From sequence record PQ433349.1: 64,000 nucleotides of DNA; one strand, 5' to 3'. Source of the DNA: Escherichia phage vB_Ec-G1. A program made the position numbers and the translations under genes. Under the pieces are notes generated by a model that saw only the letters and a program-made list of their open reading frames with translations, had not been told where the DNA came from and made no database searches. Positions 14,588-23,984 of this stretch are shown one piece after another; within the stretch, counting starts at the first letter, position 1; every line of letters starts with the position of its first letter.

Positions 14588-14617
14588 GAAAAGGAGCCAT
14601 TTGGCTCCTTTCTTTTA
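14586..14617. terminator. bidirectional intrinsic terminator between convergent modules
   Basis: aaggagcc atttg gctcctt hairpin flanked by A-run and T-run. Confidence 0.7.
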
Positions 14618-14651: not shown

Positions 14652-15578
14652 TTAGAAGCAATGCAGGAAGTTTCTACCATATTGCAGTCCAATAGGGGCA
14701 AATGGAATATCATCATCGAAGTCCATTGGAGGTTCTTCTTGATTACTTGGTTCTGGTTGTGGTTCAGGTTTCTTCTCTTCTTTCTTCTCTTCTTTCTTAG
14801 GTTGTTCTGCGGAACCACGAATGGCAGCAGCAACTTTATCAGACAGAGCCAGAACTTTACGAGCAGAATCAATCAGATCTTCTACAGATACAGTCTTAAT
14901 GGTATGGTCTTTACAAGCATTGAGAATAGCGTGACCAACAGATGCCCCAAGATCATAATCATTAATATCAACGCCACGAGATTCAGCAATTTCAGATTTC
15001 AGCGTGACAGTTGCAGATTGAACAACCCCAGCGATATCGAAAGCATCGCCTTTAACACCATTACGAATCAGTTCCAGTGCACCATTTACTGCGTGACCAG
15101 TTTCCAGACCTACAGTATCACGTTTTTTATAGGACTGTTTAGGAGCAGCATCGTTGGAACCTTTATTGCCAGAAGATTTGTTAGACTTCTGAACACCATC
15201 GGTAGACAATACTGTAATACGAGATTTTTTAGTATTGTAGTAAGTTTTACCGCCTTTATTATCAACGCGATCAATATCAATACTTACTTCTACACCTTTT
15301 TCAATAGTGATCCAATTATCACCTTCTTTGACTTGCAGGTTTTCATAACCTTCTTTCAGTTCAATATCACCAAGAGAAATCCAAACACCTTTCTCATCTG
15401 GTTTAGCACCTTTCTCTTTCAGAACAAGAGAAGCTCGGTGAGTTGAAACAATCGTTTTTCCTTCCCAATGAAAAGTTTTAGGTTCAGCGAATTTATCCAG
15501 TTTAACGTAGTCTACGATACCAGTTGCATAAGTTACGGTTTTGCCTTTACGATCAGTTTCAGTATTAATTACGGACAT
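14652..15578 (-). CDS. single-stranded DNA-binding protein-like
   Basis: 308 aa; KEEKKEEKKPEPQPEP linker then acidic DFDDDIPF motif (E. coli SSB-Ct-like), followed by 15 more residues. Confidence 0.55.
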   Translation of the reverse strand: MSVINTETDRKGKTVTYATGIVDYVKLDKFAEPKTFHWEGKTIVSTHRASLVLKEKGAKPDEKGVWISLGDIELKEGYENLQVKEGDNWITIEKGVEVSIDIDRVDNKGGKTYYNTKKSRITVLSTDGVQKSNKSSGNKGSNDAAPKQSYKKRDTVGLETGHAVNGALELIRNGVKGDAFDIAGVVQSATVTLKSEIAESRGVDINDYDLGASVGHAILNACKDHTIKTVSVEDLIDSARKVLALSDKVAAAIRGSAEQPKKEEKKEEKKPEPQPEPSNQEEPPMDFDDDIPFAPIGLQYGRNFLHCF

Positions 15579-15594
15579 TATTATCTCCTCTACA

Positions 15595-15987
15595 TTACAT
15601 TAATTTTGCACAGAAAGAGCGGAGTCTTTCCATATCATCTTGCTCTAACAGGTATTTACCTTTACCTATTCCAACTCCAATTTCACCATTAGGGAAATGA
15701 ACTATTTGCACTGGAAAACCTCCGAGTTTAATTGTGGCAGCTTTGCCTTCTTCGTCTATAACGTTTCGGATTGTATCTTGCAGTGAAATGAATTCTTTGT
15801 TTGTAACAGTGGTTTCAATTATTTCAGATGCTTCAACACGAGCAGTTAGCTTCTTGTTTCCACCTTGAATAACCAAAATCTGAAAATAAAAAGAGTTGTC
15901 AAGACCTACAACATTTTTCTCAACTAGTGTTAAACTGGTATAGTTTCCATAAACAGTTTCAACAGCTATCTTAGAACGTTCAGTCAT
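15595..15987 (-). CDS. hypothetical protein
   Basis: Track ORF 130 aa in replication module. Confidence 0.5.
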   Translation of the reverse strand: MTERSKIAVETVYGNYTSLTLVEKNVVGLDNSFYFQILVIQGGNKKLTARVEASEIIETTVTNKEFISLQDTIRNVIDEEGKAATIKLGGFPVQIVHFPNGEIGVGIGKGKYLLEQDDMERLRSFCAKLM

Positions 15988-16032
15988 TGAATGCTATCCT
16001 ATCATAAAATGTTTAATATTGTCAAGCTTTAA

Positions 16033-16626
16033 TTACCAAGGAATATCATCTTCTTCTAATCTGGTATCTACTTGAGGTGGACGTGGAACCTTAACCTCTT
16101 TCACAAAACGAAGATATGGGAAACGTGTAGCAATTTTAATAACATGTTTGGCATCTTCTCTAACATCTTTGTGCAAGAAGCAGATCCCTGTTTCCAAGGT
16201 TGTTTCAAAATCTTTAGAATAATAACAGTCCTTCCCATCAAATGCAGCCTGGCAGATGGATAGATCGAACTCATTTAGAAAGGTTGTCATTACGCTTGGT
16301 TCCATAATCATAAGGTTGCAAAGCTGACCATCACGTTCAAACTCAAAAACGTGTTTAAGACCAGTAACACCCTCGTAGTTATCCGAAGCTTCTTTGTTTC
16401 CTAATTTACGAACATTAGTTCCCATCAAAGCAGATGCAATCAATTCTTGTATTTGCTCTTCTGATCGATGTGCAGGAAGAGACGTGTAAAAATCCAGATC
16501 ACGTCCAGCAATATCAAGAATACGCCAATCACGAACAGCGCCGCCAGCCAAGACAGAATTAGGATCAGCAATCTTTAATACGGTAAGAATTTCTTTGGCA
16601 ATATTGATTTGTTTTGATTTAGTCAT
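16033..16626 (-). CDS. nucleotidyltransferase (Pol-beta superfamily) with acidic DDIPW C-terminus
   Basis: GGAVRDWRILDIAGRDLDF matches GG[AS]VRD...DxD head motif of CCA-adding/polyA-polymerase class; ends EEDDIPW-stop. Confidence 0.55.
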   Translation of the reverse strand: MTKSKQINIAKEILTVLKIADPNSVLAGGAVRDWRILDIAGRDLDFYTSLPAHRSEEQIQELIASALMGTNVRKLGNKEASDNYEGVTGLKHVFEFERDGQLCNLMIMEPSVMTTFLNEFDLSICQAAFDGKDCYYSKDFETTLETGICFLHKDVREDAKHVIKIATRFPYLRFVKEVKVPRPPQVDTRLEEDDIPW

Positions 16627-17254: not shown

Positions 17255-20200
17255 CTAGTGACAGGACGCCCAGGAGTTACCCACATCATATCCGGCAGTA
17301 AGCTGAACATTAAGATTGTAAAATTCTCCAGCCTTAGTAACAGCTAAAGCAGCAAGTTCACCTGCCCGACTATAGGCTGTAAACCATCCACCTTTGGGAG
17401 ATTCATGAATGTTAGCCCAAATTTGCCCTGTCTCTTTTTCCTTATTATGCTTCCATTCTTCAACTTTAGCAAGGCATTCTTTATCAATTTTCTTTTGTTC
17501 TTCAGGATCGTCTACTTTCTTCCAACCTAATGATTCAGGTGAAAACCATTTAAATTCTACAAGGTTACGAGAAACTTCAAGCTGGGCTTCATCGTGATAT
17601 GCAATCATTTGTTGCACGAAGTCTTTATTCTTCCAGTCATCTTTAAAGAAGTCAACACTTAGCCCTTCTTCTTCGATCATGTCGTCATAAATAACCATTG
17701 CACGTTTAGCACAGATAACCCCACCACTTTGGAACAGAGAGTTAAGAATCGCGTGAGCAGAACGAGTAGGAACCTTACGACCGTCAATACCCAAAACATA
17801 CTGTTTACCAGTCTTAACCCAGAAATCGTTTAAACGTTCTTTAAGACGCGCCAGTGGGAATGCAGCTTCCCAGAAAGCATCGAACACCAACTGACCTGTA
17901 AACTTATCGCTACCAATTGTTTTAGCAACCTTGTCGGCTTGTGCACCATAAGTAATACCATACTTAACAGATTTAGCAGGACTACGTTCAAATTTACGTC
18001 CAATAGTTTCAGTGATACGTTTTGCCATCATTGTGTGAACATCATTAGGTTTCTCTAACAACAGAGCGTTACAATATTCATGTGGCTCCGGCTCGTACCG
18101 CCAACAGTTTCCTGTGATGGTAATGCAGTCTTTCTGACGCATGACCCACGTACCAAGTTCTGTTTGTGGACACCAAACATCCTCTACACCCCACTCTTCA
18201 ATAGTCAAACTTTGAACAGGAATGTGAGAGCGGTTAGCCAATGTTACCACTTTTACTTTCTGCTCTTTTGTATTGAAAGCTACAGAGATATTGCCTCCAT
18301 GCACCAGGTACGAGGCAGTTAAAGCTGCTTCAAAAAGTTCACCTGGGTTCTGCGCCCAACGCCAAACAGGTTTTTGTTTATGTTCATGCCAGTAACCATC
18401 TGCAATCAAGAAACCTTCCAAGAAAGCTACACGCTCGGCATGAGACATATTAACTACACGCTCTACCCACGGAACATCCCATTTACCTTGTTGAACAGAA
18501 GTTAAACTATTTACCTGATCTTGTTCCATGTTAAATGGAGCATTACAAATAATATTATCTCCTGTGCAAAGCTCGGCAGTTGTTCTGACTTTAGGCACAT
18601 AAGTATTCCCTTTACTACGGGTATTAACATACCAACGGTGATCTGCTGTTGCACGGTAAGTGTGTGATTTCCCTTTAATCTCAAACGTCTTACTATTTTT
18701 ATAGAAGACCTTACCTTTTACTTTAGTCCATTCTTTCAGACCTGTTTCAGCATTGTACCCTAAAATCTCATCCCCTTCCTTCAGGTCGTGATATCCTACC
18801 CAACCTTTACGAGTCAAAGCTTGAGCATCCATCGGCACACAGTAGTGTGACTCAATCTTTGCTTCCAAAGAGTCGAAGTCATAACCGATCTGGAAGTATT
18901 TAGGAACTTCTACACCAAACAAGTTACGCATCTCCCATCCAAACAAAGATGTGACACGAGGAATATTAGCTACAGATCTATGTTTCATACGAGAGGTTGC
19001 AGCATCACATGTAGCGGCTGGGGTAGGAATACGCCCATCTGCCCTTACTGCGGCTAAGAAACCTTTATCGTATTCTTGATCTTCTTCATCTTCTTCCCAA
19101 TCAGCACCGCCACCTAAAATAGAGTTCCTACGATGCTTATACGTTAAGTATTCTACAATCTGTGTAGCATAGGGAAATTTCTCACCCAAAGCTTGCAAAT
19201 TGGGACAGATTTCTTTTTCCTGACCTTTGGTAAAACATGGGTTAGTCAATACTTTAAGACCGCGACCTTTACCTTTTGCTATACGCTCTTGAATCTTCCT
19301 TTCCAAGGTTTCCGGTGTGCACTCCAGATGATCACAACGGTCCTGACAAAAATTAGAAGATAAAGTTTGCTCAACGTAAGCTCGAATACCTTTCTGAAGT
19401 TCTTCCTCACTCTTTTTAATCTTGGTGCCAGATTTAAGAGTCAAATCTTTATCTTTATATTCTGATGGTACCCAACCTAATCCTACAAGCCAGTTTTTAA
19501 TATGGGTTGTATCGTTCAATGTTGCAGGGATGTTAGGATCACACAGAGGCTCATCTGCTGCAACTGGCAGTTTCCACTCTTTCCCCAACATAACTAACCA
19601 CCAATCGCCATCCCTCTCTTCCAAATGACCATCATGTTTCTTAGCAAAATTGATCATATGGTTAGTTGGTTCTAGGTTCTTTTTAATTTGCAATTTAGGC
19701 GGAATAAAAGCTTTAAGATAACCTTTTGTTGCTGGTTTAGGTGGCAAAATAGGCTCAACGAGTAAACGAAGACGCTCCATTTCTGCATCCAAAAAAGCAA
19801 GGTTCTCTTCTGCTTGTTTCATGTTAAAAGCAAACCCACGGTGTTCCTGGCGTGTAATAATGTCTGCTACACGTTGTTCAAGTTCAAATGGACCTTCCCA
19901 TTTATCATAATCACCCCATTCTTCCATAAGGTAATTATATACGCTCGTATTGGCTTTGTTGTCATAGATACAGTAATAAAGCATATCCGCAGCAAAAGTC
20001 TTAAATCGATCTTCTTCTGGAATCTCTTTACGGAAATCTATTTTTACATCACCACCTGCTTTTCGAGAAAGTGCTGCCAAGCTATGTCCTGATTTGCCCT
20101 CAATCTTTCGATCTGGGTTTAACACTTTACTCAAAATCAAGGAGTCAATAAGTTTTACCTTATTTTTGCCCCACGTATTATATTTAACACTGTAATCTAA

Positions 20201-20587
20201 TCCATAAAACAGTTTTGTAGCCAACCAGTCGTAGTTGATACCGTTGTGAGCCACAGCCATTTCAACCAGATATTCAGGCTTGTCTTTAAAATAACCTTCA
20301 TGATTAATAAAATCTGGGAAATCTTTTAGTTGAAAATGCGTGTAATCTTGCGCCACATACTCTTTAAGAACATATGTGTATTTACCATCTGACTCTTCAT
20401 AAGGACGCCCATCAAAGATGTATTTAGGGCCATCGTGGAAAGCTACTATTTCTCCTGTTTCATGGTTCTCTAAGACAATACAGTGCATTTGAAATGTGTC
20501 TTTGAGACGATAAGGACTAGCTAAATAATCAATAGTGTCATTATTCAACAATCCGTTTGCTTCAATATCCCATGTAAACTTACTCAC
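17255..20587 (-). CDS. DNA polymerase A (Pol I family) interrupted by an intein
   Basis: Motif A-like DFDSLEAKIESHY, motif B-like KSVKYGITYGA, motif C YHDE; about 245-aa insert after motif A. Confidence 0.85.
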   Translation of the reverse strand: MSKFTWDIEANGLLNNDTIDYLASPYRLKDTFQMHCIVLENHETGEIVAFHDGPKYIFDGRPYEESDGKYTYVLKEYVAQDYTHFQLKDFPDFINHEGYFKDKPEYLVEMAVAHNGINYDWLATKLFYGLDYSVKYNTWGKNKVKLIDSLILSKVLNPDRKIEGKSGHSLAALSRKAGGDVKIDFRKEIPEEDRFKTFAADMLYYCIYDNKANTSVYNYLMEEWGDYDKWEGPFELEQRVADIITRQEHRGFAFNMKQAEENLAFLDAEMERLRLLVEPILPPKPATKGYLKAFIPPKLQIKKNLEPTNHMINFAKKHDGHLEERDGDWWLVMLGKEWKLPVAADEPLCDPNIPATLNDTTHIKNWLVGLGWVPSEYKDKDLTLKSGTKIKKSEEELQKGIRAYVEQTLSSNFCQDRCDHLECTPETLERKIQERIAKGKGRGLKVLTNPCFTKGQEKEICPNLQALGEKFPYATQIVEYLTYKHRRNSILGGGADWEEDEEDQEYDKGFLAAVRADGRIPTPAATCDAATSRMKHRSVANIPRVTSLFGWEMRNLFGVEVPKYFQIGYDFDSLEAKIESHYCVPMDAQALTRKGWVGYHDLKEGDEILGYNAETGLKEWTKVKGKVFYKNSKTFEIKGKSHTYRATADHRWYVNTRSKGNTYVPKVRTTAELCTGDNIICNAPFNMEQDQVNSLTSVQQGKWDVPWVERVVNMSHAERVAFLEGFLIADGYWHEHKQKPVWRWAQNPGELFEAALTASYLVHGGNISVAFNTKEQKVKVVTLANRSHIPVQSLTIEEWGVEDVWCPQTELGTWVMRQKDCITITGNCWRYEPEPHEYCNALLLEKPNDVHTMMAKRITETIGRKFERSPAKSVKYGITYGAQADKVAKTIGSDKFTGQLVFDAFWEAAFPLARLKERLNDFWVKTGKQYVLGIDGRKVPTRSAHAILNSLFQSGGVICAKRAMVIYDDMIEEEGLSVDFFKDDWKNKDFVQQMIAYHDEAQLEVSRNLVEFKWFSPESLGWKKVDDPEEQKKIDKECLAKVEEWKHNKEKETGQIWANIHESPKGGWFTAYSRAGELAALAVTKAGEFYNLNVQLTAGYDVGNSWASCH
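18107..18841 (-). mobile_element. intein with LAGLIDADG homing-endonuclease domain inside PolA
   Basis: Insert begins with Cys (CVPMDAQ), contains VAFLEGFLIADGY, ends ...ITGN followed by Cys; junction codons checked against nucleotides. Confidence 0.6.
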
Positions 20588-23705: not shown

Positions 23706-23984
23706 TTAAAATGGTTCGTTAGTCTCCATCATATATTCTGCTTCTAGTTCTTCCATGTGCTTTCTAAATTGGAAAGCAATTTCTGCTACAGTTACATTTA
23801 AATCTTTTTCAAAAACTTCTGTAGAGCCTTCATAAAAACGAATACCGTCAATTAAAAGCCCTCCGTGGTAATCCCAATCACTTTCACGAGAAAGCGGGTT
23901 AGGCTCTTCATAATAGTAATCCACCTCCACGACTAAGGCTTTCCCGTTACGAGTGGTGTATTCAAAATCAAAAGTGTTAATCAT
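23706..23984 (-). CDS. hypothetical protein
   Basis: Track ORF 92 aa. Confidence 0.45.
   Translation of the reverse strand: MINTFDFEYTTRNGKALVVEVDYYYEEPNPLSRESDWDYHGGLLIDGIRFYEGSTEVFEKDLNVTVAEIAFQFRKHMEELEAEYMMETNEPF

Follow-up and report, generated by a model that had tools for sequence, protein, structure and literature searches.

A small nucleotidyltransferase of Escherichia phage vB_Ec-G1 with a C-terminal tip resembling that of bacterial SSB

Here, we describe a nucleotidyltransferase of 197 amino acids encoded by Escherichia phage vB_Ec-G1 (sequence record PQ433349.1), the C-terminus of which resembles the tip of bacterial SSB, the protein that binds single-stranded DNA. The stretch analysed, called the window below, comprises 64,000 nucleotides, and all coordinates are window positions unless another locus is named. 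The protein is probably an active stand-alone member of the Pol-beta superfamily that belongs to the class II lineage, with residues 1-177 comprising no more than the head domain and a neck stub. In the Phapecoctavirus lineage this core is followed by an acidic tail of about 20 residues, predicted to be disordered, whose end E/D-D-I-P-W-COOH would copy the D-D-D-I-P-F-COOH of SSB. We hold with middling confidence that this is an active minimal nucleotidyltransferase docked via its SSB-tip mimic to the phage replisome or to host proteins that are partners of SSB. The gene and its parts are located as follows (pLDDT, predicted local distance difference test).

16033..16626, minus strand: coding sequence of the mini-nucleotidyltransferase, 197 amino acids, ATG start, stop codon included; PHROG 10174 'nucleotidyltransferase', E 3e-63
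16096..16626, minus strand: predicted folded catalytic core, residues 1-177, class II nucleotidyltransferase head and short neck stub
16492..16548, minus strand: motif A, residues 27-45, AGGAVRDW...DLD, invariant or at least 93% conserved in 151 family sequences
16057..16095, minus strand: predicted disordered linker, residues 178-190, VKVPRPPQVDTRL, pLDDT 60-79 and falling towards the end
16036..16056, minus strand: SSB-C-terminus-like tip, residues 191-197, E-E-D-D-I-P-W-COOH, pLDDT <50

The initial annotation of this DNA had named a protein of 197 amino acids with the GGAVRD...DxD head motif and the exact C-terminus EEDDIPW, and had left out the strand. The open reading frame (ORF) is found on the minus strand with D43-L44-D45 in the motif, and the plus-strand reading of 16033-16626 contains many stops. 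The C-terminus reads ...VDTRLEEDDIPW-stop, with R-L-E-E-D-D-I-P-W as last residues and the stop codon directly past the tryptophan; the whole tail peptide is PQVDTRLEEDDIPW. In the predicted model pLDDT amounts to 60 for residues 181-190 and 47 for residues 191-197, there is no secondary structure past residue 176, and the tail (residues 178-197) is accordingly modelled as disordered. The sequence features of an SSB-type C-terminus are present, i.e. an acidic run, I-P followed by an aromatic residue and the free alpha-carboxylate, with tryptophan instead of the canonical phenylalanine. For comparison, Escherichia coli SSB and the phage SSB-like protein contain ...PPMDFDDDIPF.

The tip is far better conserved than the linker that carries it. 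In an alignment of relatives (A1, from 99% down to 59% identity) the length and sequence of the linker vary and the tip stays, with [DE]DIPW in all ten relatives at 59-99% identity bar one that has DDSFPW. The other forms are EEDDIPW, EEEDIPW, DFEDDIPW, DFQDDIPW, SNDDIPW, DYKDDIPW, DTDDDIPW and TDEDIPW, and some relatives match the SSB tip at seven of eight positions including the phenylalanine at -7 (DFEDDIPW versus DFDDDIPF). This conservation on a disordered linker bears out the resemblance to the SSB tail proposed initially. The acidic codons of the tip vary (GAT, GAC, GAA) among lineages with only 63-66% nucleotide identity (including ESCO5 and phiWec186), and ATT-CCT-TGG-TAA is identical in all lineages compared; this invariance fits strong selection, and a constraint at the DNA level would also be compatible with it.

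With the amino-acid frequencies of the window, the chance of a C-terminal DDIP[FWY] is 8.5e-7 per protein or ~6e-5 per window. Among the window ORFs of at least 50 amino acids only the nucleotidyltransferase has a clearly acidic tail ending in I-P-aromatic, and among 271 ORFs of at least 100 amino acids (ESCO5 genome plus window) the ending [ILVFTM]P[FWY] is restricted to the nucleotidyltransferase and SSB (0 of 268 other ORFs). The tip is not a chance match. Literature searches gave nothing relevant on 'DDIPW', so that an SSB-tip mimic on a nucleotidyltransferase appears to be previously undescribed. The gene itself is well known from sequence records. Full-length copies with 96-100% identity occur in 64 Phapecoctavirus-like records, and the window is 97-98% identical to Escherichia myophages of the phAPEC8/ESCO5 type (genus Phapecoctavirus, subfamily Stephanstirmvirinae), where GenBank labels the gene 'nucleotidyltransferase' or 'putative tRNA nucleotidyl transferase / poly(A) polymerase'. 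This means that the enzyme assignment is not new and that only the tail is.

The core shows the hallmarks of a class II head domain. Motif A is composed of A27-G28-G29-A30-V31-R32-D33-W34 and D43-L44-D45, with the nucleotide-binding glycines and two metal-binding aspartates (D43, D45), and the family profile aligns it with GGAVRD...DxD of CCA-adding enzymes and poly(A) polymerase from the PDB. The neck stub contains a motif-D-like helix, E157-D158-A-K-H161...K164...R168-F169-P170. In structural comparison CCA-adding enzymes scored 10.6 (3h37), 10.2 (1miv) and ~9 (human and plant enzymes), and other enzymes with Pol-beta fold (TENT5, Pol X, LinB, MenT1) scored at most 7.6. By structure, the nearest relatives are enzymes of the CCA-adding, A-adding and poly(A) kinds. 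In a search with the polyA_pol head model, suggested in the initial annotation, the Pfam head PolyA_pol (PF01743) remained below threshold (15.5 bits versus a gathering score of 23, residues 26-74), and the class II head found support in motif A, the fold and the PHROG matches (phrog_10174 E 3.3e-63, phrog_1614 E 2.9e-11). The assignment to class II is therefore carried by motif and fold and not by Pfam. The NCBIfam CCA and PcnB models gave ~12 bits (TIGR02692 12.2 versus a threshold of 438.8), and PADLOC defence models did not match the nucleotidyltransferase. As the fold is that of a Pol-beta nucleotidyltransferase instead of the OB (oligonucleotide/oligosaccharide-binding) fold of bacterial and phage SSB, and the tip alone is common to both, the protein is not an SSB.

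Sequence alone cannot place the family, since PDB searches with the close (A1) and the broad (A2) family profile gave sub-significant matches to CCA enzymes and poly(A) polymerase that were limited to motif A; additional matches to Cas12f and allophycocyanin were discarded as spurious. Profile-profile comparison with four genuine CCA enzymes yielded E 2.4e-4 at 43% probability. In this alignment GGAVRD...DLD stands opposite GGAVRD...DKD, F-D-L-S-I-C-Q-A opposite R-D-L-T-I-N-A of motif B with two arginines absent, and R-E-D-A-K-H-V-I-K-I-A-T-R-F opposite the EDPLRVLRVARF helix of motif D. In hhalign N118-E119-F120-D121 takes the place of R-R-D, by which motif B recognises ribose, again without both arginines, and position 121 varies among family members. 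In the own clade E157-D158-A-K-H161 aligns with E-D-P-L-R of motif D, whose EDxxR serves as amino-acid template for CTP/ATP; across the family neither the glutamate nor the aspartate is conserved, with Y or H at position 161. The folded part stops at about residue 177, directly past the motif-D helix, and the tRNA-holding body and tail domains are absent. The coding sequences of the genuine CCA-adding enzymes compared have 1,242-1,344 nucleotides (about 413-447 amino acids), so the protein is indeed about half the usual size. Taken together, the predicted model and the alignments support a minimal class II head domain with a neck stub.

Among 1.84 billion representative proteins, a search with a HMMER profile revealed 3,818 clusters (50% identity) at E <= 1e-3, 194 of them at E <= 1e-30, and nearly all have 170-230 amino acids and stand alone. 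Many structural look-alikes from phages are also found in BFVD, including ICP1 ORF223, LKD16, PP2, Cd1 and phiAS7. Conservation was analysed with the window protein and 150 representatives (151 sequences). Here G28, G29, D43 and D45 are invariant, and conservation reaches 99% for A27, A30 and W34, 97% for R32 and Y84, 96% for Q/N104, 95% for K164 and 93% for D33; E157 and D158 of motif D are not conserved. This pattern looks like the signature of a working active site and not of a pseudoenzyme, and from the invariance of the catalytic residues across the family we infer that nucleotidyltransferase activity is likely. The ORF223 homolog of Vibrio phage ICP1 has 137 amino acids, consists solely of a head domain and breaks off in the region of motif B, which means that still shorter versions of the family persist in well-studied phages. 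A precomputed PF26128 tag on some relatives was neither reproduced nor named with Pfam, nor was a name for it found in the literature, and literature searches found no paper on the family of phage mini-nucleotidyltransferases or its function, nor on the Phapecoctavirus nucleotidyltransferase.

The kinship with CCA-adding enzymes makes it necessary to consider a stripped-down CCA- or A-adding enzyme that repairs or matures tRNA 3' ends after damage by host defence, with a tail that is incidental or serves another purpose. Besides the nearest structural relatives, the GenBank label mentioned above speaks for it, and full-length CCA-adding enzymes are common in phages (446 records) and thought to mend tRNA ends (PMC7824862). 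Moreover, the congeneric phage ESCO5 encodes ten tRNAs together with an RNA ligase and a phosphoesterase. Against this stands the absence of the domains that hold the tRNA, the protein ending directly past the motif-D helix, as well as the lack of the RRD arginines of motif B (N-E-F-D is found there) and the missing family-wide conservation of the ED...R nucleotide template of motif D; the CCA models of Pfam and NCBIfam remain far below threshold. The gene is located between polymerase and SSB, away from the genes of RNA ligase and phosphoesterase. As all ten ESCO5 tRNA genes encode CCA, maturation would proceed without need of the enzyme; CCA repair of damaged ends, in contrast, would not depend on encoded CCA. 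For these reasons tRNA 3'-end repair, one of three roles proposed in the initial annotation, is weakened and appears unlikely, and a role in CCA maturation is disfavoured. The tRNA cluster of ESCO5 (L096:6193-8204, at 56.2-58.2 kb and outside the window) consists of ten genes that all have a genomic 3' CCA, and the pair of RNA ligase and phosphoesterase lies at a distance of about 5 kb.

The genomic context is a replication module. On the minus strand the order is primase/helicase, methyltransferase, family A DNA polymerase, three small ORFs, nucleotidyltransferase, a gene of 130 amino acids, SSB-like gene and a bidirectional terminator. The neighbours of importance are the following.

17255..20587, minus strand: family A (T7-like) DNA polymerase, upstream, separated from the nucleotidyltransferase by three small ORFs
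15595..15987, minus strand: conserved gene of 130 amino acids (phrog_16560, phi92 gp157) between nucleotidyltransferase and SSB-like gene
14652..15578, minus strand: SSB-like gene, 308 amino acids, with N-terminal beta (OB-like) domain, helical domain and acidic disordered tail
14655-14699, minus strand: 15-residue extension APIGLQYGRNFLHCF of the SSB-like protein, which follows EEPPMDFDDDIPF in its tail (DDDIPF = 14700-14717)

The nucleotidyltransferase had been described as lying beside the SSB-like gene; both belong to the same minus-strand module, and the 130-amino-acid gene (15595-15987) stands between them. The latter is syntenic in both genera of Stephanstirmvirinae, and the whole order from polymerase via small ORFs, nucleotidyltransferase and 130-amino-acid gene to the SSB-like gene is kept across both genera and in related metagenomic phages. 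The ATG of the nucleotidyltransferase overlaps the stop of an upstream ORF of 72 amino acids (ATGACTAA), which makes translational coupling of the two probable.

As a hub, the SSB tip binds more than 14 partner proteins, the pockets of which recognise the aromatic ring at its end and the carboxylate, and in phage T7 the gp4 helicase carries a tail similar to that of the SSB gp2.5. The acidic tail of T7 gp2.5, together with its terminal phenylalanine, is known to make contact with a basic patch of the polymerase (PMC12339929). Furthermore, indole-carboxylate fragments bind to the SSB-tip pocket of DnaG (PMC5872125), which makes a terminal tryptophan chemically plausible. In the mechanism that we propose the tip would act as a short docking peptide, with terminal aromatic residue and free carboxylate plugging into the hydrophobic and basic SSB-tip pockets of replication or repair proteins. 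Its partners could be the phage T7-like polymerase, a candidate for the docking of acidic/aromatic tails, or the primase-helicase, or host SSB partners. By docking, the enzyme would accumulate on single-stranded DNA coated with SSB and at replication forks, where the core with metal ions bound to D43 and D45 might catalyze untemplated nucleotide transfer from a nucleoside triphosphate (NTP) or its deoxy form (dNTP) to the 3'-OH of a nucleic acid. Three observations make an enzyme tethered to the replisome or to SSB partners the best supported of the three options of the initial annotation: its catalytic residues do not vary among the family representatives, its gene keeps synteny with polymerase and SSB, and such tails are shared by phage replisome proteins.

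The third of these options was a decoy. Such a competitive inhibitor would mimic the SSB tip and draw off host proteins that interact with SSB (nucleases, helicases, factors of restart or defence), catalysis being irrelevant. Its appeal comes from the conserved and nearly identical tip and from the SSB-like protein of the window itself. The DDDIPF of the latter is not terminal and is followed by 15 more residues (APIGLQYGRNFLHCF), so that in this phage a free SSB-like tip is left to the nucleotidyltransferase alone. The extension is identical in phi92 gp156, and as all seven nucleotide differences are synonymous it is translated and under selection. Docking by the SSB tip presumably needs a free carboxylate at the end, so the extension should either hide the tip or bring in a further motif. 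Frameshifting or readthrough as its source was rejected, as neither alternative frame gives an early stop and the extension is a conserved translated module: the ending 'DDDIPF + AP[IV]GLQY...' is common among SSB-type proteins of phages (182 phage records with at least 80% query coverage), including PVP-SE1, Vibrio podophages and lambdoid HK75. The SSB proteins of ESCO5, phAPEC8 and FKP3 stop directly at DDDIPF, and both forms are found within each genus. It is this distribution that speaks against the decoy, because in ESCO5, phAPEC8 and others the DDDIPF of SSB is free and the nucleotidyltransferase nevertheless keeps its tip. Furthermore, active-site residues are essentially invariant in the 151 family sequences including the own clade, a constancy that a mere scaffold could do without, and the tip is missing from most members of the family. 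With the active site strictly conserved and the tail missing in most of the family, a pure decoy is very unlikely.

Family-wide, endings of the type xP[FWY] are rare and were detected in 6 of the 150 representatives, namely P0007, which represents the own clade (...DDIPW), P0066 (...FPDDIPW), P0062 (...EKPIPF), P0164 (...VVEIPF), P0165 (...VESIPY) and P0121 (...WETPF). Further examples of such tips are L047 (...HNNIPF) and P0018 (...NDFPW). Leaving aside P0066, which among outgroups is closest to the Phapecoctavirus clade, the tip carriers have nearest relatives without tip, which suggests several independent gains. Related metagenomic forms end with ...MDEI, ...TDEI or ...PDVFNF, and most of the distant members stop shortly past the conserved KFPDY motif. 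Orthologs of the Justusliebigvirus type (L002:4974-5567, i.e. phi92 gp158; L003:4989-5648, i.e. FKP3; L016; L018) have acidic tails with isoleucine at the end (...NNEEFKI, ...DDAWDDDKI, ...EFMDEI, ...HWTDEI), which possibly represent a different docking code.

These tails of the sister genus also bring up the question of whether the tip is a docking motif at all. It might instead be an intramolecular autoinhibitory pseudo-substrate that covers the enzyme's own cleft for nucleic acids, as in SSB, gp32 and gp2.5, or be conserved without any SSB-related meaning. SSB-type acidic tails do fold back on their own DNA-binding surfaces, and acidic tails with a hydrophobic end (...EEFKI, ...DDDKI, ...MDEI, ...TDEI) would fit a general need and not a specific mimicry of SSB. 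Nevertheless, the match to the SSB tip spans 6-8 residues in relatives (DFEDDIPW versus DFDDDIPF), the acidic core speaks against electrostatic fold-back, and that distant members gained xP[FWY] independently suggests a common reader outside the protein. We regard a tail without docking function as improbable.

Several observations weigh against a docked, active enzyme. About 96% of the family representatives have no SSB-like tip, and orthologs from the sister genus Justusliebigvirus end otherwise (phi92 gp158 ...NNEEFKI, FKP3 ...DDAWDDDKI); this means that the tail is a lineage-specific add-on and not a feature of the family. The terminal residue of the tip is always tryptophan and never phenylalanine. 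Compared with ORFs from the same metagenomic loci (background 3.9%) tip enrichment was not significant, because this background is rich in SSB-like and replisome proteins with such tails. Outside Stephanstirmvirinae the gene is located among small early-type genes and not in replication modules. Concerning the core, its acidic nature (isoelectric point 5.4) is unexpected for a protein that binds nucleic acids, and the position of the third catalytic carboxylate is not strictly acidic, with E95 being E/D in 65% and position 104 being Q/N (96%); the profile alignment is unreliable in the central strands, and by conservation E95 and Q/N104 are the candidates for this carboxylate.

In the neighbourhoods of distant family members no constant neighbour gene was found, so guilt-by-association gives no substrate. 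The target could even be something other than a nucleic-acid end. In this case the enzyme would nucleotidylylate a protein or a small molecule, as do MntA, GlnE and the aminoglycoside or lincosamide nucleotidyltransferases, or would produce a nucleotide signal, and the tail would deliver it to a protein with an SSB-tip pocket; we consider this quite unlikely.

If the docked and active enzyme is the correct reading, it would add an enzyme class to the users of the SSB-tip docking code, and it would show that phages reuse this code on non-SSB proteins beyond the example of the T7 helicase. The family comprises thousands of phage sequence clusters that are routinely labelled 'nucleotidyltransferase', and the tip mimic is the first concrete handle on where one of its branches acts. 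A more far-reaching idea is that tail-docked template-independent nucleotidyltransferases are genuine accessories of some phage replisomes, that lineages have repeatedly acquired SSB-tip mimics (IPW, IPF, IPY) and that nucleotides are added without template to the 3' ends of primers, DNA or RNA at forks and single-stranded DNA gaps. To our knowledge no untemplated nucleotide-adding activity has been described at a replisome, and we put this idea forward as a long shot. If true, such addition might serve to protect phage DNA ends or to mark them, or it might block host nucleases guided by SSB and restart or defence factors. Should the tail not bind SSB partners, the gene would be an ordinary accessory enzyme that is already annotated.

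Similar tips were also seen in other proteins. Proteins of phrog_862 (223-245 amino acids) are encoded a few kb from mini-nucleotidyltransferase genes (L036:727-1416, L037:3134-3805, L054:7807-8544) and have acidic ends with terminal tryptophan (...GDDVPW, ...DKDIPW, ...GEDTPW), tips terminated by W being the norm there. They may be SSB-like proteins with a tip of the tryptophan type. The T7-like metagenomic locus L090, which also encodes a mini-nucleotidyltransferase, contains a DnaB-like helicase (...ERADDRVPF) and a gp2.5-like SSB (...EDLDEDVPF), a pair located as follows.

L090:3062-3904 and L090:6199-6750: helicase and SSB with shared acidic-VPF ending

In the window, an ORF of 92 amino acids (23706-23984, minus strand) adjoins the gene for primase/helicase, where ESCO5 has gp215. 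Its end, ...EYMMETNEPF, is weakly acidic with terminal P-F, and it is the sole other ORF of the replication module with an end like the SSB type. The DNA polymerase contains an insert of 245 amino acids (18107-18841, minus strand; polymerase residues 583-827) that is absent from the FKP3 polymerase. It starts with cysteine, has T-A-D-H and a LAGLIDADG-like FLEGFLIADGY, and ends with ...TGN followed by cysteine; these features are hallmarks of an intein with a homing-endonuclease remnant, and Pfam gave no Hint/intein match for the insert. A good sigma-70-like promoter match (TTGACA, 18 nucleotides, TG-TAGGAT; 10/12) is located at 15996-16025 on the minus strand, in the gap of 45 nucleotides between the stop of the nucleotidyltransferase and the next gene; in total, matches of this kind are no more numerous in the region than in shuffled sequence. 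Finally, a strong bidirectional intrinsic-terminator hairpin (14589-14612, GGAGCC-AAAT-GGCTCC, with T-runs on both strands) sits between the convergent tail-protein and SSB-like genes and is conserved in ESCO5, phi92 and FKP3.

Among known systems, the class II enzymes (bacterial CCA-adding, A-adding, poly(A) polymerase I; PF01743) differ from the phage protein in several respects. It has half their size and neither body nor tail domains, it is without the RR of motif B and belongs to a family in which the ED...R template is not conserved, it has W34 for the usual leucine, it stays below the Pfam and NCBIfam thresholds, and it carries an SSB-like tip that class II enzymes lack. A stand-alone 'CCA-adding enzyme head domain' is known from Streptococcus pneumoniae (NP_344798.1, PDB 2la3, 191 amino acids), which in contrast is bacterial, is not among the matches of the family profile and shows no detectable sequence similarity. 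The mini-nucleotidyltransferases of other phages (PHROG 10174/1614; phi92 gp158, ICP1 ORF223, LKD16, PP2) represent the same family with the same size and invariant residues (identity of 36% with phi92 gp158; E values in Foldseek as low as 6e-18). Most of them differ by having no tip, DDIPW being specific to the Phapecoctavirus lineage and the neighbouring P0066 lineage, with a few distant IPF, IPY and TPF endings. To the MNT/MntA proteins of HEPN-MNT and to MenT/AbiEii the structural match is much weaker than to class II enzymes, and there is no GSxxRG-type motif, no PADLOC match and no toxin or antitoxin partner gene nearby; neither profile, best structural match nor partner gene thus places the protein in these systems. 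With the C-terminus of SSB (DDDIPF) it shares the disordered acidic tail, I-P-aromatic and the free carboxylate, D-D-I-P being identical. As in the case of T7 gp4, a non-SSB protein of the replication module has the same kind of tail as the phage SSB, an arrangement of gp4 and gp2.5 that is repeated by the helicase and SSB of L090 with their common acidic-VPF end. In contrast with the SSB C-terminus and with T7 gp2.5 and gp4, the terminal residue is tryptophan instead of phenylalanine, and the carrier is a nucleotidyltransferase and not a single-stranded DNA-binding protein or a helicase.

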